Source: Patescibacteria group bacterium
GTDB lineage: Bacteria > Patescibacteriota > UBA1384 > DATEAH01
Direction: 5' to 3'
NCBI GenBank assembly: GCA_035288465.1
Contig: DATEAH010000005.1
Location: 131,636 to 195,635, forward strand
DNA length: 64,000 bases
The translations under genes were made by a program, and so were the position numbers. Under the pieces are notes generated by a model. The model ran no database searches and was not told where the DNA came from. It saw only the letters and a list, made by a program, of their open reading frames with translations. This document shows positions 16,993 through 63,061 of this stretch, piece after piece (the first letter of the stretch is position 1; every line of letters starts with the position of its first letter).

Positions 16993-17144
16993 CTTCGCTC
17001 CCTTCAGTCGCTCAAAATTAAAGATTAAAAATAAAAGATTCAAGATGAATATAAAAAACGATATGCAATTTTTGAAATTTACTCTTAATTTTTGCCCTTT
17101 GCTCTTTTATTTTACTCTCTTTTGATGAAAAGTCCAGTTTTTAC

Positions 17145-17173
17145 TTGACTTTTTGATTTTGATGTGTTATAAT
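17145..17173 (+). promoter_or_regulatory. perfect sigma70-consensus promoter TTGACT-N17-TATAAT
   Basis: TTGACT 17145-17150, 17-nt spacer, TATAAT 17168-17173; followed by a ~100-nt leader with a UUCG-tetraloop hairpin (AACCC-TTCG-GGGTT, 17226-17239) and a CCGCC...GGCGG hairpin. Confidence 0.55.
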
Positions 17174-17278
17174 ATAGGCATTCGAGGCTAACTTTAGCTT
17201 CGTTCGTGATATTGTTCGTTAACAAAACCCTTCGGGGTTAAACTTTCCGCCTCTGCGGCGGAGAAGGAGGTGTTAACC

Positions 17279-18241
17279 GTGAGGTTGGCACTTGCAATCG
17301 TCGTGTTGCTCGTTGTTGCTGCGTCAGTCACATTGGCGCAGTCGGCCCCAACCTGCGTGGTCGTCGTTGACCCGCAGGCCGAGTACGGCTACGGCGGTTA
17401 TGGGGGGTACGACGGGAGCTACTATTACAGCTCCCAACTCTCCCAGATCGCCAAGCAGGAACTGGAGGCTGCGCTCAGCGAGCGCGGCTGGCTGGTTCTG
17501 CTCAATGCCTCGGACGTCGGTCCGACCCAGGAGGAGTTGCTTCTTGAGAACTCCGAATGGGGCATCAACGGCAGAAATCGCCAACCTATCGGTGATTTCA
17601 CCGGAGCAACAGAGACATTTCTTGTCTCCGCCTTCACATTTGGCGGCCGCGATTTTGAACTCGCGGCTTGGCTGGATGATGCCTATCCTTCGGTCCGACT
17701 CTCGGACCTACGGGTGAAGGCGATTATCCGGCGTTCGTCAACGCGGACCCGGGAGGTTCCCGCGGTCTATGAGGGCTACGGCTCGAAGCGGATTGTCAAA
17801 GACGTCCGCTTGGGTATCCAGTCCTCGCGGAATTTCTGGGGTGGTCTTGTTCAATTGGCAAGCCAGGCTCTCGAAGCTGGTTTAACTGATTGGCAAGACG
17901 CCGGACGAGCCGCCGCACGAGGCGCCATCGAAAATGCCCTTCGGGGTATTGAAGCGCCACGCCAACTGGCTCCCACAACCAGTTCGTCAGCTTTCACAAG
18001 CGCTGACGCGCAAACGTCAACCCCCCGGTACATTTTCCTAATGCTTTATGGTCAGGAAGTTTCCGAGGGCGACCGCTTCGGCATTTGGCGAGACAATCGT
18101 CAGATCGCCGAGGTTGAGGTCGAGTTTGTCCGCTCAGACAACCGAGCATCCTGTCGAGTACTTCGCAGCTCGGTTCCTGATCTTGGCCGCCCCGGCGACT
18201 CCGCCCGCAGTCTCACCCCGACCATCCCCATAGAGCAGTAG
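17279..18241 (+). CDS. secreted protein of unknown function, GC-rich (~60% GC) in an AT-rich backbone
   Basis: GAAGGAGG SD, GTG start at 17279 (ORF-track start 17270 sits directly on the SD); signal peptide RLALAIVVLLVVAASVTLAQS; Gly/Tyr low-complexity YGYGGYGGYDGSYYY; no recognised domain. Confidence 0.55.
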   Translation: MRLALAIVVLLVVAASVTLAQSAPTCVVVVDPQAEYGYGGYGGYDGSYYYSSQLSQIAKQELEAALSERGWLVLLNASDVGPTQEELLLENSEWGINGRNRQPIGDFTGATETFLVSAFTFGGRDFELAAWLDDAYPSVRLSDLRVKAIIRRSSTRTREVPAVYEGYGSKRIVKDVRLGIQSSRNFWGGLVQLASQALEAGLTDWQDAGRAAARGAIENALRGIEAPRQLAPTTSSSAFTSADAQTSTPRYIFLMLYGQEVSEGDRFGIWRDNRQIAEVEVEFVRSDNRASCRVLRSSVPDLGRPGDSARSLTPTIPIEQ

Positions 18242-18274
18242 CTCCACCAATCTCTCCCTAAGGGAGGTGAAACA

Positions 18275-18472
18275 ATGCACTTCGAAACTAGAGTAGTCGT
18301 TGTAGAAACTGAAGGTAGGGGCGTCAGGGCAGCAACCGAACAACTCGCCGTGGATATTGCACTGCTTGGATCCGAAGGCTGGGAGGTCAAAGGACTCAGC
18401 AGCATGCTCCCCGACGAGTACCACGGGTACCATATCTGCGTCCTCCAACGCCCCACCTCTACCAAGTCCTAA
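18275..18472 (+). CDS. small DUF4177-like protein
   Basis: 65 aa; strong SD GGGAGGTG then ATG; pattern ETRVVVVETEG.G...LGSEGWEV...LQRP resembles the DUF4177 family; GC-rich. Confidence 0.45.
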   Translation: MHFETRVVVVETEGRGVRAATEQLAVDIALLGSEGWEVKGLSSMLPDEYHGYHICVLQRPTSTKS

Positions 18473-18568
18473 CGTCTCGTCGCAAGTGAGTACATCGTGT
18501 GCATCCTCGCCCGACCCATCGAGGCCGGCTAACATTAGCGGTCTCGCTACCTGGAGTTGGATCTGATG

Positions 18569-28949: not shown

Positions 28950-28996
28950 TATAAATCTCCTCTAAGTTTAATTATTGGCTTTCGGCTCGAAATTTG

Positions 28997-29068
28997 TGGC
29001 TGGGGTGGGGCTCGAACCCACAACCTACAGCTTATGAGTCTGTTGCTCTACCATTGAGCTACCCAGCC
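28997..29068 (-). tRNA. tRNA-Met/Ile2 (anticodon CAT), elongator-type
   Basis: GGCTGGG...CCCAGCC acceptor, D-arm GCTCAATGGTAGAGC, loop CTCATAA, T-arm GTGGGTTCGAGCCCCAC. Confidence 0.8.
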
Positions 29069-29194
29069 ATGTCGCGACAACCTCCACATTGTTCGCTCTG
29101 ATGTGCAAATAATACATCATAGCTCATTAGCTATAGTGTCGTTCCTTTCCAAAAATCAAAGATTTTTGGTTTTTTCAGATTTCGAATTTGTATA

Positions 29195-29265
29195 TAGCGG
29201 GGCCTGGATTTGCACCAGGGTCTACTGCTTATGAGACAGTCGAGGTACTACTCCTCCACCCCGCA
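29195..29265 (-). tRNA. tRNA-Met (anticodon CAT), initiator-like
   Basis: 5' ...GCGGGGTGGAG resembles bacterial tRNA-fMet; position 1-72 mismatch; T-loop TGCAAATCC; anticodon loop CTCATAA. Confidence 0.7.
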
Positions 29266-32954: not shown

Positions 32955-33367
32955 TGGATAACTTTCAAAATAAATACAAATGGCAAAAGCTGACTAACCA
33001 ACGCACGCAGATTTTGGAATTTTTACAAACGAATTTAAACCACCCCACGGCCGAAGAAATCCATCAAGCTATCAGGCCATATTTAGCCAGGCTAAGTTTA
33101 TCAACTATATATAGGAACCTGAGAAGCTTAGAATCAGAAGGAGTGGTTAGCTCAATTAAGACTCCGGATAGAAAAATTCATTTTGAACATGCTGGTGCTG
33201 ATCACGCCCATTTTTATTGCCTTTTTTGCCGAAAATTGATCCAACTGCCTCTAGCCGAAATTATTGACATTAAAAAACGCCTGGCGATTAAAAATTACCA
33301 GGTTCAAAAAGTTGATATTATTTTTGAAGGCATCTGCCCAGATTGTGTTTTAAAAAAACTTGAGTAA
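32955..33367 (+). CDS. fur: Fur-family metal-responsive transcriptional regulator
   Basis: winged-helix N-term, HAGADHAHFYCLFC and CPDC metal-site motifs. Confidence 0.75.
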
Positions 33368-33790
33368 ATTATTTTTTATTTTATAAGAATTGCAATGCCC
33401 CAATAAGCCCAGATAAGAAGACAAATTTTTATGATTAATCTTTTTAAACATCCTTTTTTGGGTTTTAGCTCTTAAGAGCCGATAATGTGGCAAAACCACA
33501 TAGCCCAAGAAATCTATACCTTGTCTTAATTTACGAATGATGATTTTGTTTGGATATAAATTCAAGCTGAGTTTTTTGTTTAAAAAATTTATAATAGGAT
33601 TTAATAACTTTATTAAGTTATCTCTGTCAGCGTCTAAAAACACAAAGTCATCGCAATAGCGAAGATAATACTTAATTTTCAAATAGTGCTTTATGAATTT
33701 ATCCAGCTCGCCAAGATAAATATTGGCGAAAAGTTGGGAGGTTAAATTGCCGATTGGAATTCCCCTTTTCCACCTTCCGCCAGCTGGCGG
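33350..33790 (-). pseudogene. N-terminally truncated reverse transcriptase, DGR-type (motif 4 IGNLTSQ)
   Basis: open frame gives ...RGIPIGNLTSQLFANIYL (motif 4 with [I]GxxxSQ, the DGR hallmark), YCDDFVFL (motif 5), GIDFLGY (motif 7); frame closed by a stop ~33790, so motifs 1-3 are missing. Confidence 0.55.
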
Positions 33791-33953: not shown

Positions 33954-35633
33954 ATGCTGAATAAAATTGCGAAAAATTTATTAAACTTTGTTTTTTTAGC
34001 GATTTTATTAATTTTACCTATCAAATCACATGCCCAAACAGAAGCGATTAGAAATCTTAACGCCGAAATTACAGTTGAAAAAACAGGTTTAGTCGATATT
34101 GTGGAAACAATTGACTATTATTTTCCTACTGCCAAACATGGCATTTATCGCTATATTCCAAATCGATTCAAAGAGAGCTCTGGCCGCAAATTCAAAACTG
34201 AGCTCAAAATTCTAAAAATTAAGAATGAAAAAGGGAAGTCTATCCCCTACACCACTAGTCAAAATGGCGATAATTTAGAAATTAAAATCGGTGATGCCAA
34301 CAAAACGGTTAATGGTGATTATCAATATCAAATTCATTATCAAATTTCTGGTGTAATCAATAGTTTTTCAGATCATGATGAGCTGTACTGGAATGTCACC
34401 GGCACTGGCTGGGAAGTACCAATTGAAAAAGCCCAAGCGCGAGTGGTTTTACCAGATGTGATAAATCCCGCCAGTCTTCAAGATCGCTGTTTCACTGGTT
34501 CACAAGGTGCCACAAATGAAAATTGTTCAAAAAGTATCAATCAAAATCTGGTCGATTTTTCAGCCAGCGGAAATTTAACCGTGGTGGTAGGCTGGGAAAA
34601 AGGGGTAGTCACAATCCCCGCTCGAGAATATGTTTTTTCCGGTTTTAATTCTTGGTGGTTAATGATAATTCCATTTGTGGTTTTTTTGCTCTTTTCCTAT
34701 ATATTATTAAAATTTGGCCGAGATCCCAAAAAAATCACCACCATTGCCCCGGAATTTTCGCCACCGCAAAATTTGACAATTCCGGAAATGGGCACGATTT
34801 TGGATGACCGCGTCGAACCTGCTGATTTGACTTCGCAAATAATTTTTTGGGCCACCAAAGGATATATTAAAATCAAAGAGGAAGAAAAAACCTTTTTGCG
34901 GGGCCAAAATTATACTTTAATCAAACTCAAGGATCTGCCCCAACATGCCAAATCTTTTGAAAAAATGTTTTTTGAAGCCTTATTTGAAAACCAACAAAAA
35001 GTGAAGCTTTCCGAACTTAAAGTAAAAACCACTTTTTATAAAAAGTGGCGAGAAATTTCACAAAAAATTTATACAGATTTAATGATCGAAAAGTATTTTC
35101 CCCAAAATCCAGATAAAATTCGAAAAAAATATCTTTGGATTGGCCTTGGCATTATCATTGCCGCCGCGATCGCGGGCCCGTTACTTTTATCATATACTTT
35201 GGGCATTGCCCTATTTCTAACTGCCGCAACCGTGATGATTTTTGGCTATTTTATGCCCAGAAAAACCTTAAAAGGTGTAGCGGCTTTGCAAAAAATATTG
35301 GGTTTTAAAGAATATATTACTAAGGTAGAAAAATATCGCACGCATTGGGCAGAAGATGAAAATATTTTCTTGGATTTTCTGCCATACGCAATTTTGTTTG
35401 GCGTGGGTGATAAATGGGCAAAAACTTTTAAAGATATTTACAAAGAACAACCCGACTGGTATGAGGGTAATTGGACGACTTTTAACACCATGGTTTTTAT
35501 AAGTAATTTAAATGGTTTTAATAGCACTTGGTCTGGGGCAGTTTCCGGAGCAGCTTCAGGTTCGTCTGGTTTTTCGGGTGGTGGTGGTTTTTCTGGCGGT
35601 GGTTTTGGCGGTGGCGGTGGCGGCAGCTGGTAA
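33954..35633 (+). CDS. DUF2207-family membrane protein with Gly-rich C-terminal tail
   Basis: N-terminal signal/anchor, extracellular domain, central TM helices, C-terminal SGFSGGGGFSGGGFGGGGGGSW; start at second ATG (AAGAGGG SD). Confidence 0.6.
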   Translation: MLNKIAKNLLNFVFLAILLILPIKSHAQTEAIRNLNAEITVEKTGLVDIVETIDYYFPTAKHGIYRYIPNRFKESSGRKFKTELKILKIKNEKGKSIPYTTSQNGDNLEIKIGDANKTVNGDYQYQIHYQISGVINSFSDHDELYWNVTGTGWEVPIEKAQARVVLPDVINPASLQDRCFTGSQGATNENCSKSINQNLVDFSASGNLTVVVGWEKGVVTIPAREYVFSGFNSWWLMIIPFVVFLLFSYILLKFGRDPKKITTIAPEFSPPQNLTIPEMGTILDDRVEPADLTSQIIFWATKGYIKIKEEEKTFLRGQNYTLIKLKDLPQHAKSFEKMFFEALFENQQKVKLSELKVKTTFYKKWREISQKIYTDLMIEKYFPQNPDKIRKKYLWIGLGIIIAAAIAGPLLLSYTLGIALFLTAATVMIFGYFMPRKTLKGVAALQKILGFKEYITKVEKYRTHWAEDENIFLDFLPYAILFGVGDKWAKTFKDIYKEQPDWYEGNWTTFNTMVFISNLNGFNSTWSGAVSGAASGSSGFSGGGGFSGGGFGGGGGGSW

Positions 35634-35650
35634 AATTGTAAACAAAAAAT

Positions 35651-35721
35651 GGGCCTGGCAGGGATCGAACCTGCGACATGACGCTTATAAGACGTCCGCT
35701 CTGCCACTGAGCTACAGGCCC
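35651..35721 (-). tRNA. tRNA-Ile (anticodon TAT)
   Basis: GGGCCTG/CAGGCCC acceptor, D-arm GCTCAGTGGCAGAGC, anticodon loop CTTATAA (UAU), T-arm GCAGGTTCGATCCCTGC, discriminator A. Confidence 0.7.
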
Positions 35722-35770
35722 CCATTTATACCTAATTATACTTAAAATTGCTCTAAAAGGCAATTTTTTA

Positions 35771-35799
35771 TTGTCTTTATCAAATAATCATGCTATGAT
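35771..35799 (+). promoter_or_regulatory. sigma70-like promoter TTGTCT-N17-TATGAT (TGn extended -10)
   Basis: upstream of the three-gene GC-rich operon starting 35854. Confidence 0.4.
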
Positions 35800-35853
35800 T
35801 TATTTAATCCCGCGACACCTGCCGTAACGCCAGAAACCCGGAGGTAAACCGCG

Positions 35854-36348
35854 ATGTCAAACCCAAGAACTCCCTTAACCCAAATTGGCGAATTGCTTGG
35901 AATTGGTGACTTGGCCGAATACATCTTGCACGATCTGAATCCTGAATACCCTGCCTTGTCCCTTAGAATATCTGACTTAAACCGCGAAGTGGTGTATCAG
36001 TCTTTGCTCGAGATGGTTCTTCAAGCTTTAGAGGGCGACCGGATCATCAACCAGCCCACTTCTCCACTTAGATTGGCAATCGGTCCAGCAGTAGAAGCCT
36101 GCCGAGCCTACAATATTCTTTATGGCACGCTTGGTCGCCGCGGCACGCTTGGTTTACCGGAAAAACATTTTAGCGAAATGATTTGGCCCTATCAACTGGC
36201 CCTGACCAATTTCTTGGAACGTCCAGCAGATAAAACAGATGAAAACGAAGTTAAGATTTTAACTGAGTTCTTGGAAGGACTTCTTGGGTTCTTGGTCTGG
36301 GCAACTGCGATGATTCAGGAAGGATCTGACCCCTTTGACAGAAAATAG
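35854..36348 (+). CDS. hypothetical protein (164 aa), no recognisable domain
   Basis: GGAGGT SD + ATG; ~47% GC versus ~34% backbone. Confidence 0.5.
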   Translation: MSNPRTPLTQIGELLGIGDLAEYILHDLNPEYPALSLRISDLNREVVYQSLLEMVLQALEGDRIINQPTSPLRLAIGPAVEACRAYNILYGTLGRRGTLGLPEKHFSEMIWPYQLALTNFLERPADKTDENEVKILTEFLEGLLGFLVWATAMIQEGSDPFDRK

Positions 36349-36409
36349 TTTCATACGTTATCCATTTCGCCTGATGCGCACCGCGAGCAACCAGCAGAGG
36401 TGAGCTGAG

Positions 36410-36880
36410 ATGGCAGATAATGACGCAGTATCGCAAGTTGCTAATGCTTTTAATCTTGCTGCAGTAGTCGAGGCGATTCTTTATGAAGATTGGGAGACAC
36501 TTTTCAGCGGTCAAGGACATGCTAAAGGTGGGGCGGCAGAATATGAAGCTAATCGATTGGAAAGATTATCACACGTTACTGCGTTTCTTGAATCGGCAAT
36601 AATCGGTTATGAAATAATTATTGACCCAGGCCAAGCTACTAGATACGAAGGTGATTCAGCAAATACCTTTTGTAATAACTTCAGATTAGTTCAGTCTGCT
36701 TTTGAGAAAAATGAAATTAAAGATATTGAGCAGGCTTATCGGCATCTTCTGAATTTAGTTGAAATATTAAAAACCGTCCCCGAAATCATAACTAAATTAT
36801 TCGAGCTTCGTAATTCCTTAGGAGCGCTTGAAAGTCAATTACGAGACCAAGCCAAACAAACTCTTGGAGTGGAGGGGTGA
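36410..36880 (+). CDS. hypothetical protein (156 aa), no recognisable domain
   Basis: SD/start cassette AGGTGAGCTGAGATGG. Confidence 0.5.
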   Translation: MADNDAVSQVANAFNLAAVVEAILYEDWETLFSGQGHAKGGAAEYEANRLERLSHVTAFLESAIIGYEIIIDPGQATRYEGDSANTFCNNFRLVQSAFEKNEIKDIEQAYRHLLNLVEILKTVPEIITKLFELRNSLGALESQLRDQAKQTLGVEG

Positions 36881-36886
36881 GCTGAA

Positions 36887-37411
36887 ATGGATCAGCGAGA
36901 GCTTGAGAAGAAGCATAAACCCGAAAGGTATCCAGAACTTTATGGCGAGGAGTTGATTCGGAAAACACACGAAGCGGCAATGGCAATATTTCGAACTACG
37001 GCATTTATTAAAGATCAAACTATTAGAGATTATCCCGAAAGTGTTGTCCCACAATTTGAAATTCTCTGCCAATTTCTAATTGCCTCAGGGTGCGCCTTTA
37101 AACATTTTATGACTGATCCGAACGAACGAAGTTCTATCCCGCCAACCTTTAATCATTTTGAGATGATACAGTTTTTCGTCAGATTCGCCCACACCTTTGA
37201 CAATAAATTCAGTCCCGAAATCAAAGATTATAAAGATGGTTTCGAACCTCTGACCCAACTTCTGCAGAGATTCGAACTGGCCCTTTTCAATTATATGCAT
37301 AACCCAACCCTGACTGTCACCGATGATTTTCGACAATTGGTCATTTGTATTTCTCGGACCTACGAAGCTTATTATAATGAAGGTTTTAGGCGCCATCGCC
37401 TAGCTGCATAA
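36887..37411 (+). CDS. hypothetical protein (174 aa), no recognisable domain
   Basis: SD/start cassette GGGGTGAGCTGAAATGG that contains the TGA stop of the upstream gene. Confidence 0.5.
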   Translation: MDQRELEKKHKPERYPELYGEELIRKTHEAAMAIFRTTAFIKDQTIRDYPESVVPQFEILCQFLIASGCAFKHFMTDPNERSSIPPTFNHFEMIQFFVRFAHTFDNKFSPEIKDYKDGFEPLTQLLQRFELALFNYMHNPTLTVTDDFRQLVICISRTYEAYYNEGFRRHRLAA

Positions 37412-37426
37412 TTAGAATTATCACCT

Positions 37427-37479
37427 GCCCCGTGAGGCTAAAAACACTTTTTTGCCCTGCGGGGATTTTTTTATAGGCT
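37427..37479 (+). terminator. terminator-like hairpin + T-run after the three-gene operon
   Basis: CCCCG...CGGGG stem followed by ATTTTTTTAT. Confidence 0.4.
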
Positions 37480-37533
37480 CGGTGCCCATAATCCCGCCTT
37501 CCAAGCGTTATGACAGGTAACTTTGCGGGGTGA
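37475..37533 (+). repeat. island-associated repeat copy 1 (TGCCCATAATCCCGC ... GCGGGGTGAT hairpin element)
   Basis: ~75% identical over ~90 bp to the copy at 40515-40612; shares the ATAATCCCGC...GCGGGAT hairpin with 45499-45546. Confidence 0.5.
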
Positions 37534-37673
37534 TTCAACTCGATGGCGATAATCCCGATTTTACCTCCTTGACCCCGCACAATATTTAATATTCGCGAAG
37601 ATCTACGTTCTCGACTCAAGCGTCATATATGCGGGGTCTACGCCCCGCTCCGTGCGTAGCTCTGGTGTGGGGC

Positions 37674-37702
37674 TTGACAAACCCATTTTATTTTGCTATA
37701 AT
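37674..37702 (+). promoter_or_regulatory. perfect sigma70-consensus promoter TTGACA-N17-TATAAT
   Basis: TTGACA 37674-37679, 17-nt spacer, TATAAT 37697-37702; preceded by GCGGGG-TCTAC-GCCCCGC hairpin; drives the L,D-transpeptidase gene. Confidence 0.5.
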
Positions 37703-37796
37703 GGTATAATTTGAAAAATGTCTCGTCAACCATTGATTGAGACACGGTCCTCAATAAGGAGGGGGCTGTCAAAAACAAAAATAGAAAAGGAAAAAA

Positions 37797-39269
37797 ATGA
37801 ACGTGAAAGTTGGCAGTTTGACTTTTGGCAATAATTCCAAAGTCATCACTCAAAAACAAAATGTAAAAAATCAAAAAGCGGTTACTTTTTGGAATCACAA
37901 AGCGGTTAAACCTACTTTAGGCATTATGACCTTTTTAGCTGTCACTCTTTTAGGCTATGGCTCATTCGCCTATGCTTTTCAACACAAGATTTATCCGGGT
38001 GTTAATGTGGCCGGAATTAATTTGGGCGGAAAAACTAAAGACGAAGCGCTTCAGCTTTTAGGCCAAAAATACAAAGAATGGTCAAGCCAAAAAATGACGG
38101 TGGCAGTTGGTGATACCAAAGTGACGGAAAAATTAACCAACATCGGCGTTAGTTATAGCCCTGGCGACTTAGCTGATAAAGCGTTTGCGGTTGGTCATAG
38201 TCAAAATTGGTTTGAAAACGCCAAATCAACGGTGAATTTAGCTTTCAACGAAGTTAGTTTTAATCCTACCTATAATATTAGTAAAAAGAAATGGAACAAT
38301 TATTTAAATCAATTAAGTTCTAAAATTGAAAAAAAGGCCGAAGATCCCCACTTAGAATTAGCCAATGGTAAAACCAAGATCGTTTTAGGCCAAACTGGCA
38401 TTACTTTAGAAACTGATAAATTAAAAGACCAAATTTTTACCAAAGCTCAAGCTGGCACTTTAGATGAGATTCAAGCTCCAGTGACCAAAAGCCAAATTGC
38501 AGTTCCTGATGATCAAGCGGCTCAAATTACCCAAACTGCGGATAATTATTTAGCCCATACAATTTCTTTAACCTATGAAAATCAAAATTATGTGGCTTCA
38601 AAAAGTGAAATTTTCACTTGGTTAATTTTAACTAAAAATGGTGAAGATTTCAGTTTAAGCCTTTCTAGCCAAACCATTGCCGGTTTTGTGAGTTCTGCTG
38701 CCCGTCATATTGATAAAGCGGCAATTGCTAAAGAAGTCACTCCTGCTGGACAAGTTTTATCTGAAGGTGCGGCTGGTCAAGCAGTTAATCAATCTGCGGC
38801 AGTGTCGGCGGTTAAAGCGGCTTTAGCCGGTAAGGGTTCAGACCAAATCGCTTTAGCGGTATCACCAGTTCAACCATCGGTTCGCACTATTTACCCTGCT
38901 GGGACTCCTGGTTTATTCCCTGGCAAATACATTGAAATTGTGCTTTCTAAACAAACCTTATATGCTTTTGATGGACAAACTTTAGTCAGATCGTTCTTAA
39001 TTTCTTCTGGAGTTGCAAGTCACCCTTCTCCTGTTGGTATGTTCGCCATCTATTCAAAATCACGTTCTGTTTTAATGTCTGGCCCTGACTATTATTTACC
39101 TAATGTTCAATGGGTTAACAGATTTTACGGCCCTTATTCAATTCACGGCACTTACTGGCATAGCAACTTCGGTCACCCCATGAGCCATGGATGTATCAAC
39201 GCGACTAACGGCGATGCTGCCTTCATCTACACTTGGGCGCCAATGGGTACTCCGGTCGTAATTCACTAA
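37797..39269 (+). CDS. L,D-transpeptidase (YkuD domain) with N-terminal TM anchor and extended periplasmic region
   Basis: C-terminal YkuD catalytic motif HPMSHGCINATNGDAAFIY; N-terminal TM helix. Confidence 0.8.
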   Translation: MNVKVGSLTFGNNSKVITQKQNVKNQKAVTFWNHKAVKPTLGIMTFLAVTLLGYGSFAYAFQHKIYPGVNVAGINLGGKTKDEALQLLGQKYKEWSSQKMTVAVGDTKVTEKLTNIGVSYSPGDLADKAFAVGHSQNWFENAKSTVNLAFNEVSFNPTYNISKKKWNNYLNQLSSKIEKKAEDPHLELANGKTKIVLGQTGITLETDKLKDQIFTKAQAGTLDEIQAPVTKSQIAVPDDQAAQITQTADNYLAHTISLTYENQNYVASKSEIFTWLILTKNGEDFSLSLSSQTIAGFVSSAARHIDKAAIAKEVTPAGQVLSEGAAGQAVNQSAAVSAVKAALAGKGSDQIALAVSPVQPSVRTIYPAGTPGLFPGKYIEIVLSKQTLYAFDGQTLVRSFLISSGVASHPSPVGMFAIYSKSRSVLMSGPDYYLPNVQWVNRFYGPYSIHGTYWHSNFGHPMSHGCINATNGDAAFIYTWAPMGTPVVIH

Positions 39270-39297
39270 CAAAAATTAGAAATATCAAATAAAAAAA

Positions 39298-39328
39298 GGG
39301 CTCCGAAAATTCGGGGCTCTTTTTTTTG
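39298..39328 (+). terminator. rho-independent terminator
   Basis: A-run, CTCCGA-AAAT-TCGGGG hairpin, then TTTTTTTT. Confidence 0.7.
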
Positions 39329-39393
39329 TGCTTAAATTGAGGTATAATTAGGATAATTTCCAGGACTTTAACAACTTATTAAAAACAAGGGGG

Positions 39394-39573
39394 ATGAAGT
39401 CGATAGCTAAAGGAATGCGGCGCTCTAAAAAATTTGCGAGATTAAGGGCAGAATGCCAGGTTGCTACGGTAATTCAAAATTTCGGTAATGGAGAAATGAT
39501 TGAGCTAATCCAAAAACTTAACGATGAATCCAGGAGAAAGTATAATGGATATAAACGTCGAAGGAGGAGATAA
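39394..39573 (+). CDS. small basic protein (59 aa, C-terminal RRRRR), not in ORF track
   Basis: AAGGGGG SD + ATG; stop 6 nt before the next ATG; next gene's SD GAAGGAGGAG lies inside its 3' end. Confidence 0.35.
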   Translation: MKSIAKGMRRSKKFARLRAECQVATVIQNFGNGEMIELIQKLNDESRRKYNGYKRRRRR

Positions 39574-39579
39574 ATCTAG

Positions 39580-39852
39580 ATGCCTAGAGCGCAGAAATGG
39601 GACAAAGATAGAGCGGAATTTTGCGCTGCGCGAGATTTGCATCATGCTCTTAAACCTTATTATTCCGATAAAGTCTTGGCAGGAGTTTTGCCTGGCCGCA
39701 AAGAAGAACTTTCAGCCAGAAAAGGAAGAAAAAGAAAACGTCGAGAAGCAGAAGCTACTGGAAGTGTAAGAATTGTCGGAGAAAATTCCACTCCGAAACA
39801 AAAACCCGAAAAAACAATAATACCAAGACGAAAGAAAGGTGATCCGAAATGA
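39580..39852 (+). CDS. small Lys/Arg-rich protein (90 aa), unknown function
   Basis: GAAGGAGGAG SD + ATG; stop overlaps the next start (ATGA). Confidence 0.45.
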   Translation: MPRAQKWDKDRAEFCAARDLHHALKPYYSDKVLAGVLPGRKEELSARKGRKRKRREAEATGSVRIVGENSTPKQKPEKTIIPRRKKGDPK

Positions 39853-40346
39853 TCTGGCTACTCTTCGTGGAAACGCCGATTGCTTGGATATTGAGCGGTT
39901 ATATGCTATATTGGGTTTTTTCTTCTTCGCTGCCGACATCTGAAAGAAAAAGATTATTCCTGACCCAATTTTTACCTCTGTTTTTTGTACATTTTGTCGC
40001 TAAATATATTGGCCAAACCCGTTTTTATACTCCGCTATATATCGAAAAAGGTCCTCTATTTAGCGATGTTATGATCTGTATGCTTTTAGGCTGGTGGATA
40101 TATGTAATCGCATTCTACTGGTTTGAACTAAAGAAAAAGTCGACATCAACCCAAAGGGATTTCCTTCAAGTGCATGCGCTCCTCGGTTTCTTGCTGGCTT
40201 TTGTTGGTTATTTTGGCTTTTTGTTCTACTACCACGATTTATATATTGCAATTCCTGTTTTTTGGGTTTATCTGGTCTTTTCTCTTATGCTTTGGATTGC
40301 AGGAGAACATCTAGATCTAAAACTTAAACCCAAGGAGACAAAATAA
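39849..40346 (+). CDS. integral membrane protein (165 aa), unknown function
   Basis: 4-5 TM helices; translationally coupled to the upstream ORF. Confidence 0.5.
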   Translation: MIWLLFVETPIAWILSGYMLYWVFSSSLPTSERKRLFLTQFLPLFFVHFVAKYIGQTRFYTPLYIEKGPLFSDVMICMLLGWWIYVIAFYWFELKKKSTSTQRDFLQVHALLGFLLAFVGYFGFLFYYHDLYIAIPVFWVYLVFSLMLWIAGEHLDLKLKPKETK

Positions 40347-40514: not shown

Positions 40515-40612
40515 GTATCATTTTTTGCCCACACCTGTTAGGTTCTTTTTTTATGGGTTCGATGCCCATAATCCCGCATTCCTCGCGTCACGATAGGAAA
40601 ATCTGCGGGATA
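40515..40612 (+). repeat. island-associated repeat copy 2 (T-run + GGGTTCGATGCCCATAATCCCGC ... GCGGGAT)
   Basis: aligns with 37440-37535. Confidence 0.5.
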
Positions 40613-40622
40613 ACTTGCGAGA

Positions 40623-41615
40623 TCAATTTTTTTCGCAGACGCGCATTTTGGCGGAGCGGCTTTTGGGATTTTGCTCAATTTCTGCAGGTGCAGGTACCAG
40701 AGGTTTTGAGGTCAAGATTTTAATTTTGGGTTTTTTGCCGCAAACGCAAACCGGCGCTTTTGGCGGACATTCGCAAGGATTAGCGAGCTGACGGAAAGTT
40801 TTTTTCACTAAGCGATCTTCGAGGGAATGAAAAGAGATAATTATTAATCTCGCGCCGGGCATTAAAACATCAGCAAATTCAAAAATGGCTTTTTCTAAAT
40901 TTTCAAGCTCTGAATTTACTGCCATTCGCAAAGCGCGAAAGATATTTGTCGCAAAATGTTTTTCGCGGCTATATCGCCACTTTGGCGGGGTAGCGGTTTT
41001 GATAATTTCCACTAATTGATTGGTAAAAGTTATTTTTTGGGTTTTTCTGGTAATAATAATTTGCTTTGCAATCCGACCAGCAAATGGGGACTCCCCTAAC
41101 TTTGAAAAAATATCCCGCAATTTGGATTCTGGCCATTCGTTGACTATAAGTTCTGCAGTTAGGGTTAGGGTTTGACTTTGGTCTAATCTCATATCAAGTT
41201 TGGCGAGCACATTAAAACTAAAACCGCGGCTGGCAGTTTCTAATTGATGAGTTGAAACGCCTAAATCCAACAAAGCGCCGGAAATTTGTTTTATTTTTAA
41301 TTTTGATAAAATTTGTTTGATATTAGAAAAATTATCCTGTACAAAAATTATTCGCTTTCCAAATTTAGCTAATTTTTTTTGAGAAGCCTTAATCGCTTCT
41401 ATATCCAAATCAATCCCAATAACATTACAGTTTTGAGATTTTCCGCCCGAGGCGGATCCACCTTTGACGGAGAGTTTGGAGATTTGAGTTTTTTCGAGTA
41501 GAGCTCGCGTATGGCCACCGCCGCCCAAAGTCCCATCAACAAAAAAACCACCCTTTTGAGGCTGGAAAAAATTCAAAACTTCATTTGGCATCACCGAAAG
41601 ATGATATTGTTTCAT
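40623..41615 (-). CDS. rsmH: 16S rRNA (cytosine1402-N4)-methyltransferase RsmH (MraW)
   Basis: VDGTLGGGGHTRALLEK SAM-binding motif and RsmH layout, with a Gly/Ser-rich insertion. Confidence 0.8.
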   Translation of the reverse strand: MKQYHLSVMPNEVLNFFQPQKGGFFVDGTLGGGGHTRALLEKTQISKLSVKGGSASGGKSQNCNVIGIDLDIEAIKASQKKLAKFGKRIIFVQDNFSNIKQILSKLKIKQISGALLDLGVSTHQLETASRGFSFNVLAKLDMRLDQSQTLTLTAELIVNEWPESKLRDIFSKLGESPFAGRIAKQIIITRKTQKITFTNQLVEIIKTATPPKWRYSREKHFATNIFRALRMAVNSELENLEKAIFEFADVLMPGARLIIISFHSLEDRLVKKTFRQLANPCECPPKAPVCVCGKKPKIKILTSKPLVPAPAEIEQNPKSRSAKMRVCEKN

Positions 41616-45429: not shown

Positions 45430-45498
45430 TTTCGCCTCCTTGGATATTATATTGGAATTTTAAATCTGATTCAAATTATTCGATGTCGTCATTAAGGG

Positions 45499-45546
45499 AT
45501 ATAATCCCGCAAAGTTTTCTATTCTGACGCAGGGAAAGCGGGATTG
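45499..45546 (+). repeat. island-associated repeat copy 3 (ATAATCCCGC-loop-GCGGGAT hairpin)
   Basis: same stem sequences as copies 1 and 2; followed by CCCC-TTCG-GGGG tetraloop hairpin at ~45612-45624. Confidence 0.45.
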
Positions 45547-45705
45547 TGAGTATCAAACCCATAAGAACCTCTCGCTTCGCTCGAGAACCTTGTTGCGTGC
45601 TTGCGCTACCCCTTCGGGGCGGCGGCTTCGCCTGGCAAGCGATGCAATAAAAAAATCCCGTCAAGGTAAAAAGTAAAAACCCTAACGGGTGACAAATTGG
45701 TTTAA

Positions 45706-46704: not shown

Positions 46705-47527
46705 ATTTAAGGAGAAAATTACCAGCAACACAGTGCTGGTTGATATACGCACAAACAGATGGTCAAGCCTTGTTGTCAAGAAGTGAGAGGGCTTGGCAGT
46801 TCTGTTTGATCCTGTCACAGAAGGAGGTGATAGATAGACCACACCAAGAGGATGCCGTTAGACAGGACTCGGTCAGGGATCTCAGGGAACTCGGATCAAG
46901 AATCGGATGACGGGATCTACTGGGTCAGAAAGTGCTTCGGATCACGTGGACAGGTGGATCGGTCACAGATCGTGGTCGTGTTGTACCCGGGGGAGGATGC
47001 TCTAAGGTCGACAACGCGGTCAATGAGGATGTCGTAGTCCAAGTGGAAATGCCCATGCGGGCTTGTGGTCCAAGTAGTCTCGCATCCTCCCCCAGTCGCT
47101 CTTCCAGCTTCACCCTGATACACCCGACGACCAAACGTCGTTCCTGCCGGCTAAACCCGTAAATTCGTGCGGGTTTATGCCCCGGCCATCCTTCTCCAGT
47201 TGTGGAGAAAAACACCATGAAGAAGCTCGCCCTCTGCTGACGATCTACACCGTGGTCAACCCCAAACCTTCTCACCCCCGCATCGTTGCGGGACGCCGAC
47301 CCTACTAAGGGAAGGATCACCAGTCTAACTGGAATCGTCGCACCTTCCCTTAGGCCCTCATCGCCTACACGTCTTGGCGCCAGCCAAGAGCACGACCAGA
47401 GGTCGGAGAGGTTCGTCCTCACCCCTCGCCCCGGCTATTGGAGTACTACAAAGAGCATCCTTAGCTGGAGCACCCCCGAGAGTACGAGAGCTTAGCGCGC
47501 TTTCATGCCCCCGGGGTTTCTTTTTTA
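46705..47527 (+). ncRNA. candidate large (~820 nt) highly structured GC-rich ncRNA, class unknown
   Basis: no dominant reading frame (short overlapping ORFs on both strands); many nested inverted repeats, e.g. GGGGGAGGATGC...GCATCCTCCCCC, AAGGGAAGG...CCTTCCCTT enclosing CCAGT-CTAA-CTGG, ACCAGCA...TGCTGGT; bounded by a promoter and a T-run. Confidence 0.4.
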
Positions 47528-49951: not shown

Positions 49952-50134
49952 TTAAAATTGTAATTTTTTAATTGCTAAGGCAAGTCCCGAAATAATAATG
50001 GCAATTGCCAGAAGATACAACCCTAAACAAATCCAAATGTGTAGATTTTGCCCCAGAGAAATAGCGGCTCCAATCATTGAGAAACATCCACAAACAAACA
50101 TAAAAATGCCTAAGCCAAACCAGGTTATCTTCAT
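49952..50134 (-). CDS. island operon gene 7: small 2-TM membrane protein (60 aa)
   Basis: ATG overlaps upstream TGA (ATGA); preceded by GGAGGGATAAGAG. Confidence 0.5.
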   Translation of the reverse strand: MKITWFGLGIFMFVCGCFSMIGAAISLGQNLHIWICLGLYLLAIAIIISGLALAIKKLQF

Positions 50135-50412
50135 CTCTTATCCCTCCAGATTGATACTTTTTTAACTGTTTTGGCTTTTAGGATTTTATTTTCTGTGTCA
50201 AATTCTAAAATTTCAAATGTCTGTGCATCTACTTCAAACACAGTTACTTTCTGACCCGTGAATTGATTGGTTGCAAATGCTGTAGCGAGAATCATTTGTA
50301 AATTTAGTCCTTGTACTTTTTCAATACGACATTTCTTAGCATCATCTATATAAACGTCCACATAATCCCCAGCATACACCGTGAGAAGAGATATTTTTTC
50401 TGCCGTTGCCAT
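50131..50412 (-). CDS. island operon gene 6: hypothetical protein (93 aa)
   Basis: preceded by CCAGGAGGCGATGAGAG-ATG cassette. Confidence 0.55.
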   Translation of the reverse strand: MATAEKISLLTVYAGDYVDVYIDDAKKCRIEKVQGLNLQMILATAFATNQFTGQKVTVFEVDAQTFEILEFDTENKILKAKTVKKVSIWRDKR

Positions 50413-50450
50413 CTCTCATCGCCTCCTGGAGTTTGTGGTTCGGCTTGATT

Positions 50451-50891
50451 CTAATCTTGCAACCGTGTTACGACTTGATTGCAAAGAACTTCAAACCGTT
50501 TGATTGCATCATGCGATAACCTTAAACTTGAAAGAGAAATTTTCCCATTATTATCGATGGCTTGGATAATCTCTTGGCAAGTAGGCACAACCACTTCTTG
50601 CAATTTATCAATTGCCTCGAGGTCATAATTGCCTTCCAAAGGAATTGAGAGATTGGCAGCTTGTTTGGAACAAATATCTCTGACTTCTGCCGAAAGCTCC
50701 TCAAATTTTGCTGGAAATGTGGTTAAAGGACGGCGATCATCTTCGTTGAGTTGCTCAAGAAAGTATTTAAGCTCTTCGGGCCCATGCATATGCATCTTCC
50801 AGACGCATTCAAGAATTTCCATAACTTCATTGGCTCTCACGAGATAAGCAGCAAGCATAATCCGAGTGACGACCGCTGGCATCTGTTCCAT
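50451..50891 (-). CDS. island operon gene 5: hypothetical protein (146 aa)
   Basis: preceded by TGGAGACGATGAGAG-ATG; the upstream gene's TGA lies inside the cassette. Confidence 0.55.
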   Translation of the reverse strand: MEQMPAVVTRIMLAAYLVRANEVMEILECVWKMHMHGPEELKYFLEQLNEDDRRPLTTFPAKFEELSAEVRDICSKQAANLSIPLEGNYDLEAIDKLQEVVVPTCQEIIQAIDNNGKISLSSLRLSHDAIKRFEVLCNQVVTRLQD

Positions 50892-50894
50892 CTC

Positions 50895-51356
50895 TCATCG
50901 TCTCCATAAGTCTTCGATTTGATCTTGAACTTCTTGAGCCAAAGCCTTACCTTTATCGGTTAAAACCACCAAATCTTGATCATTTATTTCAACAATTCCA
51001 GCAACTACAGCTTCGTCAAGAATCGTGAGAGGATGATTGGCATCAAGTAAAATCGCAATTCCATAATCTGCTGATTTTACGATGACTGCTTGAAGTAATT
51101 CCAAATGTTTCTCACGAATAAGACAACTCATAACTTCATTAGAAACACCTAGATGATACGAGATTACATTTTCAATACCTTTCATAAACCCTGTAATGGT
51201 TTCTGGGCAGAGAATTTGCAAACGTGCTCTTTGGTAATCTTCTTCAGGCATACGACGGGTCCACATATCAATATAACAACACCCGCTTGCCTCTATTTTG
51301 TGTAAATCGTCAACTAGATCACCCAAAGTTTTTCTGGCTTGATTGTTTTCGCTCAT
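50895..51356 (-). CDS. island operon gene 4: hypothetical protein (153 aa)
   Basis: preceded by CCAGGAGGCGATGAGAG-ATG. Confidence 0.55.
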   Translation of the reverse strand: MSENNQARKTLGDLVDDLHKIEASGCCYIDMWTRRMPEEDYQRARLQILCPETITGFMKGIENVISYHLGVSNEVMSCLIREKHLELLQAVIVKSADYGIAILLDANHPLTILDEAVVAGIVEINDQDLVVLTDKGKALAQEVQDQIEDLWRR

Positions 51357-51405
51357 CTCTCATCGCCTCCTGGGTAGGGGTTGTAAAAACCTGGACGGGC
51401 GAATA

Positions 51406-52167
51406 TTACTGTTGATTTTGAAGATTCATAATCTCACGTGCGAGCATGTTTAAGTAAGTGCAAGCATAAGTTCTCATTAAAAATGCTTGAGGAACGCGAT
51501 ACCCGCCATGAATCTCTGCCCGCAAAACATCAAAAATACCATGCCAAGAATCATCTGATCCGGAAAAATCGCCCTTGGCGAAAGGCTCAACTGTTTGGCG
51601 TTTACAATTGATCTCACTGCGTTCCAATTCTACATCTCTTTCGAGAACAAAATTAGAGGTATCAGTGTAGGGCGGGAATTTAATTAAGAGCAGGGCGCCT
51701 GAACCTGGACCAAGACTGATATAATCAGAATCAACCCAATTACATTTTCGATCATGACCATTATCAGCGTCCAAAAATTCACCAAGCCATTTCATTCTTT
51801 CTTTAATGGGAATATATTTTAATATTCGGGAAATTGGCGAATAAATTTCCTCGCCGACTCTTTCTCTGAGTTTTGTCGGTTCAGTGGGAGAATTTATCCA
51901 TCTGCCTATGTCTTCAATAAACCCATCAAGACATTCTCCAAAAGCATTTCTTTCGATTTGGCAATTCTGCTCATGAGATATTTTTCCGGAAGAAATCGCT
52001 TCGATAATCGGTGGCCAAATCAGGATCGGCGCAATTTCAATTTGATAGCCAACCTTTTCCTCGCAAGGCGGTTTTGCCCTTCCATAATGGCATCGGCATT
52101 GATGACGAAAAGGAGTCATTGCCATGGGGAAGTTAAAACGATGCAGATAGGGCATAGGGTCTGCCAT
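51406..52167 (-). CDS. island operon gene 3: hypothetical Cys-rich protein (254 aa)
   Basis: start moved to ATG at 52167 (MADPMPYLHRF) preceded by CGGAGGCAATCGAG; the ORF-track GTG start 52209 has no SD. Confidence 0.5.
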   Translation of the reverse strand: MADPMPYLHRFNFPMAMTPFRHQCRCHYGRAKPPCEEKVGYQIEIAPILIWPPIIEAISSGKISHEQNCQIERNAFGECLDGFIEDIGRWINSPTEPTKLRERVGEEIYSPISRILKYIPIKERMKWLGEFLDADNGHDRKCNWVDSDYISLGPGSGALLLIKFPPYTDTSNFVLERDVELERSEINCKRQTVEPFAKGDFSGSDDSWHGIFDVLRAEIHGGYRVPQAFLMRTYACTYLNMLAREIMNLQNQQ

Positions 52168-52201
52168 CTCGATTGCCTCCGTGGTGAGTTTTGAATCAGA
52201 A

Positions 52202-52420
52202 TCAAGCACTTATTTCAAATACATTATCACCAACAGGCGTCACATGAAATGTCATACTATAATCAAAGAGTAGAGACACTGTCAACACGTTAATTTGTTT
52301 GTATGTTCCTTTAATTTTAACCTTACCGTTATTCTTTAATATAAAAGAATGCAAATCATCAACGGTAAGCGAACCAGCATCAAGAACCTCCTGCTCTTGA
52401 CGAGATTCTGCCTCTGCCAT
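52202..52420 (-). CDS. island operon gene 2: hypothetical protein (72 aa)
   Basis: preceded by CAAGGAGGCGATCGAG-ATG. Confidence 0.5.
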   Translation of the reverse strand: MAEAESRQEQEVLDAGSLTVDDLHSFILKNNGKVKIKGTYKQINVLTVSLLFDYSMTFHVTPVGDNVFEISA

Positions 52421-52443
52421 CTCGATCGCCTCCTTGTGGTGTC

Positions 52444-52551
52444 GGATTACTATGTTTGCGCAAAACGTAAAAATTCAACAAGCAGCCATCCTACAAAAGT
52501 AGTATCAAAAAGGATAACAGAAAGACACACCATCGCTTCTTTGACACTCAT
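52444..52551 (-). CDS. island operon gene 1: small hydrophobic peptide (35 aa), not in ORF track
   Basis: CCAGGAGGCGATCGAG-ATGAGT; MSVKEAMVCLSVILFDTTFVGWLLVEFLRFAQT. Confidence 0.4.
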
Positions 52552-52619
52552 CTCGATCGCCTCCTGGGGAGTTTGGGATTCCAAATTGTTAAAGTACTGG
52601 CTCTTCGTAATTAGGTAAA

Positions 52620-62398: not shown

Positions 62399-62504
62399 CG
62401 GCTGATTCCTCCCGGGGGGTCTGATAATGAATCAGTTAATTTATTATCTCAAATAAATTTGAAAAAATCAAGATTATATAGTAAAATAATGATATAAAAT
62501 TTGA

Positions 62505-62781
62505 TCCGGTGTAGCTCAGTGGTAGAGCAGCTCGCTGTATATCGTTGCAGCCCCCAAAGGTAACTTTGAGGTGAAAATCGGGTTAATTGTCGGGAAGCCC
62601 CGCTTAAGTGAGGTAATCCGCAGCCAAGCCCGCCGAAGAGGCGTGGAAGGTTCAGAGACTATACGCCCGATTCCGCACCCGTCAATTTGACGGACGGAAA
62701 TGAGATAGTCCACTCCTAAAGGTAACTTTAGGGTAAAGTGTAACGAGAAGGTCGCTGGTTCGAATCCAGCCACCGGAGCCA
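62505..62781 (+). tRNA. tRNA-Asn (anticodon GTT) interrupted by a ~202-nt intron in the anticodon loop; CCA encoded
   Basis: 5' exon TCCGGTGTAGCTCAGTGGTAGAGCAGCTCGCTGT, 3' exon TAACGAGAAGGTCGCTGGTTCGAATCCAGCCACCGGAGCCA; spliced loop CTGTTAA; closely resembles E. coli tRNA-Asn. Confidence 0.7.
62539..62740 (+). ncRNA. group-I-like intron within tRNA-Asn (between anticodon-loop positions 35/36)
   Basis: 5' exon ends in U pairing with G of an intron GCAG guide-like sequence (U.G); intron ends in G; contains AGAGACTATAC P7-like element; no ORF. Confidence 0.55.
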
Positions 62782-63061
62782 AATCAAAACATCTCAATTT
62801 TATGAGAAATTTTGATTTGTTTTGGCAAGGGCGAGAACCCATGGCGTAAAACATCGTCAAATAAAAAAGTGACATTTTAGCAAAAAGTTTAAAGAATTAA
62901 AACATTTTTGTATCGAGACGGGCTTTAGCCCTTTGAATCGCCTCATCGGCGATCCAGCGAAGAGGTGAATCCCTGCCCCGGAGCCACGAAAAATGACTCA
63001 GCCATAAAATGACTCAGCCACGCTTCGCTGTCTCGTAGCGATAGAAAGGACGCAAATAATC

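Follow-up and report, generated by a model that had tools for sequence, protein, structure and literature searches.

A probable lineage-restricted operon of three orphan proteins with near-identical start cassettes at two of its genes in a Patescibacteria bacterium

We analysed a stretch of 64,000 nucleotides (the window; positions 131,636 to 195,635 of contig DATEAH010000005.1, assembly GCA_035288465.1) from a Patescibacteria (Candidate Phyla Radiation, CPR) bacterium. Three consecutive forward-strand genes between 35854 and 37411, here called the trio, very probably constitute a real accessory operon of orphan proteins, and on balance we favour the fuller reading that this operon is restricted to its lineage. 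The host is a clonal Patescibacteria population, a groundwater bacterium with a tiny genome. The trio lies between a divergent tRNA-Ile gene on the left and the L,D-transpeptidase gene YkuD on the right, and its products are deposited as the hypothetical proteins VJJ80_01620, VJJ80_01625 and VJJ80_01630 (HLC38803–HLC38805) of a Patescibacteria metagenome-assembled genome. The original prediction, made from the DNA letters alone, had described an operon of uniform mid-GC content, encoding proteins of no recognisable family, with its own signals and related start cassettes, and had proposed a common origin or mobile vehicle with islands at 17 kb and 50–52 kb. A real unit with its own predicted signals and related cassettes emerged from our analysis as well; the uniform GC content, the link to the 17-kb island and the vehicle did not hold. 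The three open reading frames (ORFs) have the lengths first proposed and all lie on the + strand:

35854–36348, + strand: gene 1, 164 aa, acidic (pI 4.7), no transmembrane segment, GC 46.5%, GC at third codon positions (GC3) 46.7%
36410–36880, + strand: gene 2, 156 aa, acidic (pI 4.6), no transmembrane segment, GC 39.5%, GC3 26.8% (host-like)
36887–37411, + strand: gene 3, 174 aa, pI 6.2, no transmembrane segment, GC 41.0%

Among 4,000 shuffled strands of this 1.56 kb, no third-longest ORF was as long as 156 codons (maximum 95), so the trio is not a chance arrangement. The annotated frame of each gene was the best of six under a codon model trained on the other genes of the window, a test that is partly favoured by the annotated frame being free of stops. 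Genes 2 and 3 also show the GC1 > GC3 ≥ GC2 periodicity of host genes. Stop codon usage in the 60 long ORFs of the window (TAA 44, TGA 11, TAG 5) indicates the standard bacterial code; a reading of TGA as a sense codon was considered and rejected, since TGA terminates 11 of these ORFs and the ORFs are not fragmented.

Genes 2 and 3 start within near-identical cassettes, as had been claimed. An exact search for the pattern GGTGAGCTGA[G/A]ATGG found exactly two occurrences in the window, at these two starts, and the two junctions are identical over 15 nt that are absent from the rest of the window:

36396–36413, + strand: junction cassette 1, AGAGGTGAGCTGAGATGG, with an extended Shine-Dalgarno (SD) sequence, two TGAs and the gene 2 ATG (36410)
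36873–36890, + strand: junction cassette 2, GAGGGGTGAGCTGAAATGG, with the gene 2 stop TGA (36878–36880) within the SD-start region of gene 3

Both cassettes follow one layout: a GAGGTGA core, a TGA that is in frame with the ATG to come, the dinucleotide GC, another TGA in a different frame, a single purine and ATGG. In cassette 1 the TGAs fall at 36401–36403 (gene 2 frame) and 36406–36408 (gene 1 frame). Cassette 2 does contain the stop of gene 2, as first proposed; genes 2 and 3 share a frame, with TGA-GCT-GAA between them, and the gene 3 ATG (36887) follows 6 nt after the stop. With the start codon excluded, the start contexts of genes 2 and 3 agree at 14 of 19 positions, which ranks this pair third among 1,830 pairs of gene starts (mean 5.8, standard deviation (sd) 2.3). 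Only start pairs within the operon at 50 kb, described below, rank higher (17/19 and 15/19). The GAGGTGA extended SD core is complementary to the 3' end of 16S rRNA. We examined whether the likeness of the two starts merely reflects the SD norm of the genome: this applies to the GGAGGTGA core of the cassette, which is an ordinary extended SD; the cassette in its full 15 nt goes beyond what is normal across the genome.

The stop/SD/start overlap does not extend to gene 1, whose TAG leaves a gap of 61 nt before gene 2. The frame of gene 1 stays open for 19 codons beyond this TAG, up to the second TGA of cassette 1. Such an open stretch has a chance probability of ∼0.3 and would fit an older, tighter gene 1/2 junction.

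The trio is framed by candidate expression signals:

35771–35799, + strand: promoter-like site TTGTCT-N17-TATGAT with TG (extended −10), found by consensus scan (9/12 plus TG)
37428–37472, + strand: terminator-like hairpin (37428–37464) followed by U7 (37466–37472), fold −17.8 kcal/mol, z = −2.7

The promoter that had been predicted is present as a sequence 55 nt from the gene 1 ATG, but such a match is no rarer than in shuffled DNA, and the argument for this putative promoter is its position. The claimed hairpin and T-run, in contrast, were borne out; a pattern scanner for terminators had missed the hairpin on account of its loop of more than 8 nt. Gene 1 is preceded by the SD GGAGG at 35840–35844. 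The SD sequences of the trio, scored against the canonical anti-SD, reach −10.1 to −10.9 kcal/mol and rank within the strongest quarter of the 60 window genes, about a third of which have a strong SD and more than a third essentially none.

No recognisable domain had been noted in the three proteins, and our searches agree. Nothing below E = 0.03 was obtained for any of them in Pfam, PHROGs, PADLOC or NCBIfam. A sequence search of the PDB gave only the designed helical protein TMH4C4 as a match to gene 2, which we judged compositional. In a word-indexed search of 5.8 billion clusters each protein returned its own cluster only, and an exhaustive phmmer search of 1.84 billion representatives of ∼15 billion proteins with gene 3 returned only gene 3 itself. 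Searches with tblastn against 50,697 phage records, with blastn against plasmids and by pattern scans of IMG/VR gave no matches. Homology to housekeeping proteins, which would have spoken against an accessory role, was likewise looked for in these searches and not found. The three proteins are also unrelated to one another at the level of our comparison, no pair scoring above shuffled controls (z = −0.5 to 1.8). By all these searches, the three proteins are orphans. Orphan hypotheticals make up a large fraction of CPR genes.

Single-sequence AlphaFold2 models were obtained for genes 1 and 3, and both are predicted to be all-alpha. The gene 1 model (predicted local distance difference test, pLDDT, 55) has long helices at residues 44–60, 71–94, 103–122 and 130–155, and the gene 3 model (pLDDT 53) at 21–39, 50–75, 90–108, 122–138 and 146–173. 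The Foldseek comparison proposed for these proteins was run against the PDB and gave nothing for gene 1; a BFVD search with the gene 3 model also gave nothing. For gene 3, the top PDB matches were toxins of the MNT-HEPN type and DUF86 proteins, namely 7bxo_F (probability 0.72, template modelling (TM) score 0.42/0.52), 6m6w, 5yep_C, 8xeh_B, 7ae6_A and 1ylm, at E = 0.78–4 and TM scores of 0.33–0.52. At these values the HEPN-like resemblance of the predicted model is not significant.

The GC content of ∼47% first given for the three ORFs applies to gene 1 only. The block as a whole has 42.8%, compared with 38.0% for the window, and genes 2 and 3 fall within the range of window genes (38.6 ± 5.6%). 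Codon and tetranucleotide usage is nevertheless atypical for the host, in the same direction as in a second operon of small genes at 50–52 kb. Codon likelihoods of genes 1, 2 and 3 are 0.098, 0.166 and 0.057 bits per codon (host genes 0.337 ± 0.076), and the z scores for synonymous choice relative to host genes are −4.6, −2.2 and −1.9. The tetranucleotide Jensen–Shannon divergence (JS) from the pooled host is 0.037 for the trio, compared with 0.017 ± 0.004 (maximum 0.028) for host segments. The two islands with which the trio had been compared are:

50131–52570, − strand: second small-gene operon of six or seven ORFs, each with the cassette GGAGGC[G/A]AT[C/G][G/A]AGATG
17140–18540 (in narrower limits 17270–18473), + strand: 17-kb island, GC 59%, with a 323-aa gene and a 65-aa ORF

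The ORFs of the 50–52 kb operon encode ∼33, 72, 255, 153, 146, 93 and 60 aa, the first and last hydrophobic. Their ribosome-binding cassette is nearly constant over ∼20 nt, (C)CAGGAGGCGAT[C/G][G/A]AGATG. The proteins have no Pfam, PHROG or phage matches and are not related to those of the trio above shuffled controls. Two observations link the operons. The 10-mer GAGATGGCAG occurs three times in the window (0.06 expected), at the start of gene 2 and at two starts of the 50–52 kb operon. The JS of the 50–52 kb operon to the host is 0.037, the same as for the trio, each being ∼5 sd from the host, and the JS between the two operons is 0.0295 (two host segments, 0.034 ± 0.007). The fit of the trio to the synonymous usage of the 50–52 kb operon is non-specific, as the unrelated 17-kb island fits too. 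The 17-kb island has a perfect TTGACT-17-TATAAT-type promoter, a GGAGG SD and a GTG start; its 323-aa protein is of a secreted type, having an N-terminus that resembles a signal peptide as well as a stretch rich in Gly and Tyr. The island has no Pfam or PHROG match. With a JS of 0.149 to the host and 0.097 to the trio, it is strongly foreign and compositionally unrelated to the trio. The shared style that had been proposed thus holds for the 50–52 kb operon, in GAGATGGCAG and in composition, and not for the 17-kb island, which differs in its GTG start, GC content and JS.

Downstream, the trio is followed by a dispersed repeat. Its recurrence at 40.5 kb had been noted and was confirmed, and we located further copies at 45.5 kb and just past the end of the window. 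A degenerate, partial copy precedes gene 1:

37467–37549, + strand: repeat copy A, T-run, hairpin 1 (7 bp), hairpin 2 (7 + 4 bp), nhmmer E = 1.6e-24
40547–40627, + strand: repeat copy B, downstream of the terminator that follows the gene for the 165-aa membrane protein, abutting the 3' end of rsmH
45486–45567, − strand: repeat copy C, intergenic, between a 307-aa gene and a PCC-domain gene
contig L018, 5613–5681 (∼1.9 kb past the right end of the window, ∼65.9 kb): fourth full copy, between convergent small genes
35796–35841, − strand: degenerate partial inverted copy D, in the 5' untranslated region of gene 1, from the −10 box to the SD

The four full copies (nhmmer E from 1e-12 to 1e-24) are ∼85 nt long and all intergenic; none was found in the leftmost 35 kb of the window or in a further 10 kb beyond its left end. 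Over these copies the hairpins pair in 93% of cells, compared with 37–50% in slid controls. At four pairs both partners have changed, a count also reached by 7 of 500 shuffles; in hairpin 1 of the fourth copy, ATCGCC/GGCGAT replaces ATGGGT/GCCCAT. Ahead of every copy stands a hairpin that is not conserved; its loop is short in copy C and large in the other three. The T-run of the trio's terminator is the first conserved segment of copy A. Since a hairpin and T-run head each copy, this terminator is effectively part of the repeat unit. Copies A and C fold no better than shuffles, and Rfam, at the gathering threshold and at E ≤ 10 over 35600–37800, gave the tRNA only and no family for the repeat or the block. 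We therefore regard the repeat as a DNA element like repetitive extragenic palindromic (REP) sequences or miniature inverted-repeat transposable elements (MITEs) and not as a structured RNA. When the four copies were read, within ∼77 kb of the genome, no terminal inverted repeats, target duplications, REP-associated tyrosine transposase (RAYT) or other transposase were seen, with no systematic search having been made. The repeat core gave a single match in other organisms, in a metagenome, which we dismissed as chance; it lies within an unrelated GC-rich gene of cytochrome type. Two other identities for the repeat were rejected. A remnant of a tRNA 3' end (an attachment, att, site) was discarded, as the T-arm-like stem has a 5-nt loop and no tRNA-derived repeats were found; the template/variable repeat pair of a diversity-generating retroelement (DGR) does not fit, as the mismatches are not confined to adenines. 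Copy A is followed at 37540–37561 by an incomplete tandem echo of the repeat core (TCGATGGCGATAATCCCGATTT). Copies A and B lie in direct orientation at a distance of 3,080 bp, and between them are YkuD, a very basic 90-aa protein and the 165-aa multi-transmembrane protein.

Copy D comprises half of the element and scores 7.1 bits (E = 0.17 over the window, with an nhmmer profile of three copies), which is below threshold. It nevertheless ranks first among 698 non-self tiles (the runner-up has 4.2 bits), and none of 300 shuffled sequences scores as high. Bracketing of the trio by D and A in inverted orientation is a hint of a past rearrangement and no proof of a vehicle; we take it as a hint only, because the other copies flank ordinary genes.

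The trio occurs in more than 20 contigs (ENA, JGI, Logan and NCBI), in the same neighbourhood every time. Of the population contigs, ten match the window at 100% identity, save for a single mismatch in one of them (L004). A contig of a sister strain (L014; ERZ4903070 k141_1141291; 4,091 bp, window 35901–39991) has three differences, all in genes 2 and 3: a K39 to stop change in gene 2, and G118C and L125F in gene 3. All are N-to-T changes. YkuD, the gene for the 90-aa protein and the covered part of gene 1 are free of differences, and random placement along the contig would put all three changes into genes 2 and 3 with p ∼ 0.014. These variants suggest relaxed constraint or dispensability; assembly errors at low coverage are a further possible explanation. 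In a separate protein sequence (P0007, derived from SRR3972149) the gene 2 TGA reads as Gly and leads in frame into gene 3 (...LGEERGAEMDQQELEKKQK), with further substitutions near the end. This readthrough variant was set aside as unreliable, as it has no traceable contig and its differences cluster at the sequence end.

We suggest the following model. One mRNA would start at the −35/−10 site at 35771–35799 and end at the terminator-like hairpin and T-run at 37428–37472. Genes 2 and 3 may be coupled in translation through their stop/SD/start junction, giving near-equimolar products. The three proteins, predicted to be helical, would then act together, probably as a hetero-oligomeric helical-bundle complex; that they form one complex is the more tentative part of the model, and we put it forward as a possibility. 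Because of its atypical usage, the lack of relatives and the nonsense allele of the sister strain, the block is probably dispensable, fast-evolving or horizontally acquired and not part of the core machinery. A role in conflict or defence (toxin-antitoxin, phage defence or counter-defence) would be the likeliest class of function, but this assignment is itself doubtful.

Several observations weigh against a functional, lineage-restricted accessory operon. With the low pLDDT of the two models (55 and 53), a helical bundle is indicated at the level of secondary structure only. Relatives of genes 1 and 2 were sought by the word-indexed method, which may miss distant ones. The population contigs are clonal and near-identical, which leaves too little variation to reveal purifying selection, and the cluster of nonsense and missense changes in the sister strain could be a sign of decay instead of function. 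The region has about as many promoter-like sites as chance would give it (11 found, 12.5 expected from shuffles). The near-host GC content of genes 2 and 3 gives no evidence of a recent foreign origin for them. Finally, an empty site was not found: the relatives reached through the flanking DUF2207 protein are only 35–36% identical and share no synteny.

Four other explanations were weighed, and each is less supported than a lineage-restricted accessory operon. The trio could be a mobile cassette moved by the two-hairpin repeat, in the manner of a moron or a MITE-flanked gene, with the 50–52 kb operon coming from the same donor, possibly a phage or plasmid. Copy D, the best non-self match, lies inverted exactly at the 5' boundary of the operon; the terminator of the trio belongs to the repeat unit; the four full copies fall within ∼30 kb (37.5, 40.5, 45.5 and ∼65.9 kb), with none in the 45 kb to the left; and the two operons share tetranucleotide usage and the GAGATGGCAG start motif. 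However, copy D is subthreshold on its own and of half length, the other copies stand beside ordinary genes (YkuD, rsmH, PCC) as a general intergenic element would, the repeat core is absent from the other organisms searched, and the likeness in codon usage is non-specific. Neither operon, nor its neighbourhood, contains an integrase, transposase, RAYT or phage-like gene, no att repeats were found, and no target-site duplication was identified, with no systematic search for one. The common vehicle originally envisaged is not supported by these data, and we consider a mobile cassette unlikely. Less likely still is a three-component toxin-antitoxin or abortive-infection module, in which gene 3 would encode a divergent HEPN-like toxin and genes 1 and 2 neutralizing or regulatory partners. 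Small, tightly coupled, strain-variable modules with their own expression are typical of toxin-antitoxin loci, and the trio has small genes, tight coupling, a predicted promoter and terminator of its own and a nonsense allele in the sister strain. The fold matches of gene 3 fall repeatedly on HEPN toxins and DUF86, but at E ≥ 0.78 and from a model of pLDDT 53 they may be the generic noise of helical bundles. The Rx4-6H motif, searched by regular expression, is lacking in the C-terminal half of gene 3, its one instance in this protein being at residues 4–10; gene 1 has none, and an instance in gene 2 (RLERLSH, 49–55) is at chance level. Neither Pfam (E ≤ 1) nor NCBIfam nor PADLOC gave a match to a HEPN or DUF86 profile. 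An NTP-transferase match in Pfam, which would mark a minimal nucleotidyltransferase (MNT) antitoxin as partner, is lacking in genes 1 and 2, and gene 1 is predicted to be all-alpha. Judged by sequence, HEPN membership fails on motif, profile and partner.

Ancient tandem duplication of one helical-protein gene, with the junction cassette as a relic kept by selection on initiation, is about as improbable as the toxin-antitoxin module. It would account for the similar lengths (164, 156 and 174 aa), for the all-alpha prediction of both modelled proteins, for the 15-nt identity of the junctions and for the gene 1 frame that runs open to the second TGA of cassette 1, which would give the same stop-start geometry as between genes 2 and 3; there is also one weak collinear local alignment of genes 2 and 3 (A-TF-N-F...EIKD, pairwise E = 0.11). 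No protein pair rises above shuffles, however, a 19-codon open stretch is readily met by chance, and a non-coding junction that outlasts protein similarity would be unusual unless strongly selected. The ORFs could also be non-functional, whether de novo, decaying or artefacts of gene calling on foreign DNA. Strict orphan status, low codon adaptation and low AlphaFold confidence would agree with this, as would the nonsense and two missense changes in a contig whose flanking 3 kb is unchanged. Three consecutive ORFs of at least 156 codons did not arise in 4,000 shuffles, though, each gene has a strong, well-spaced SD, genes 2 and 3 have host-like codon periodicity, and over 20 contigs, drawn from many samples, carry the trio intact and unchanged. 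We regard non-functional ORFs as very improbable. The most far-reaching scenario has the trio and the 50–52 kb operon as cargo of an undescribed CPR mobile or viral element, in which standardized junction cassettes would serve both coupling and shuffling by homology, the repeat would mark module boundaries, and the trio would be a three-protein conflict system with a divergent HEPN-like component; we give it the faintest likelihood of all.

The neighbourhood of the operon is one of housekeeping genes. To the left the order is FtsH, DivIC, CAP, Fur, a reverse transcriptase (RT) fragment, DUF2207 and tRNA-Ile; to the right it is YkuD, the 90-aa protein, the 165-aa membrane protein, RsmH and a 2-oxoacid:ferredoxin oxidoreductase. 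No integrase, transposase or phage gene is among the genes called around the trio. The tRNA gene next to the operon is:

35650–35721, − strand: tRNA-Ile (anticodon UAU), found by ARAGORN (Rfam tRNA 70.9 bits), divergent from the trio

A tRNA-Ile with the anticodon UAU is an uncommon bacterial route to reading AUA; two tRNA-Met/CAU genes lie at 28996–29265. A TTGCCT-N17-TATAAT site found by the consensus scan at 35763–35735 (− strand) lies upstream of tRNA-Ile and faces the promoter-like site of the trio. No partial duplicate of tRNA-Ile (att) was found, its sequence matching only other tRNAs within the window. The trio sits on the 5' side of this tRNA gene; a tRNA-linked integrative island was rejected on this ground and because there is no integrase among the called genes and no repeat of the tRNA 3' end.

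The RT fragment is a remnant at 33350–33790 (− strand), reading ...GIPIGNLTSQLFANIYL...YCDDFVF...GIDFLGY..., with a weak match to Pfam RVT_1 and without its N-terminal two thirds. It carries an IGxxxSQ motif, which we take to be a hallmark of DGR RTs, and looks like the relic of a DGR, situated 2 kb upstream of the trio. Elsewhere in the window, a group I intron (Rfam RF00028, 81 bits) at 62451–62784 (+ strand) interrupts a tRNA gene that ARAGORN did not call; the 5' half (acceptor/D-arm) lies at ∼62504–62540 and the 3' half (T-arm/acceptor) at ∼62745–62784. A 165-codon ORF at 46925–47422 (− strand) has a GC content of 57%, a codon likelihood of −0.17 bits per codon and no Pfam match. Rfam gave nothing there at the gathering threshold. 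This stretch may be of foreign origin, or it may be no gene at all but a non-coding or structured region rich in GC.

What is solid in this analysis is that the genes are real, that their products are orphans, and the anatomy of junctions and repeat; the uniform mid-GC content, the link to the 17-kb island and the vehicle are not. If functional, the trio would represent three new protein families, of a kind that accounts for much of what CPR genomes encode and is still unexplored. We see no sign of a new mechanism, an orphan operon is unsurprising in CPR, and the proteins are already public as hypotheticals. Noteworthy are the near-verbatim junction cassettes in two operons and the genome-specific, terminator-carrying repeat that brackets the trio, which together offer a possible handle on how genomes of such small size gain, express and lose accessory genes.

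Compared with known systems, the trio resembles the ORFan genes of CPR/Patescibacteria, which are likewise small, family-less hypotheticals among the housekeeping genes of a small AT-rich genome. It differs in that three orphans stand in one tight operon with a duplicated 15-nt junction, atypical composition and flanking hairpin repeats, and in that the evidence for gene 3 as an orphan is unusually extensive (a search of 1.84 billion representatives). Phage morons also have their own predicted promoter and terminator, a composition unlike that of their flanks and apparent dispensability; the trio, however, is not in a prophage, its neighbours being Fur, DUF2207, tRNA-Ile, YkuD and RsmH, with no phage-like protein. 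The HEPN toxins of MNT-HEPN systems (HepT/MntA, DUF86) are, like gene 3, small all-alpha proteins encoded in compact operons. Gene 3 encodes 174 aa, whereas the matched chains have ∼130 aa, and it lacks the placed Rx4-6H motif, the Pfam match and the MNT partner.

The repeat has its closest counterparts in REP elements and bacterial interspersed mosaic elements (BIMEs), BOX and Correia elements and MITEs, which are also multi-copy, intergenic near terminators and built of stem-loops with compensatory changes at a size of ∼85 nt; unlike these it has no Rfam match and is known from this genome only. The cassettes are best compared with translationally coupled junctions. The gene 2/3 junction shares with these a stop inside the SD-spacer and an ATG 6 nt on, a geometry also found at the junction of the 153-aa and 146-aa genes in the 50-kb operon, whereas genes 1 and 2, with their 61-nt gap, are uncoupled in the present sequence. 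What distinguishes the trio from ordinary coupled junctions is that 15–19 nt are repeated almost verbatim within one operon, beyond what complementarity to the SD needs.

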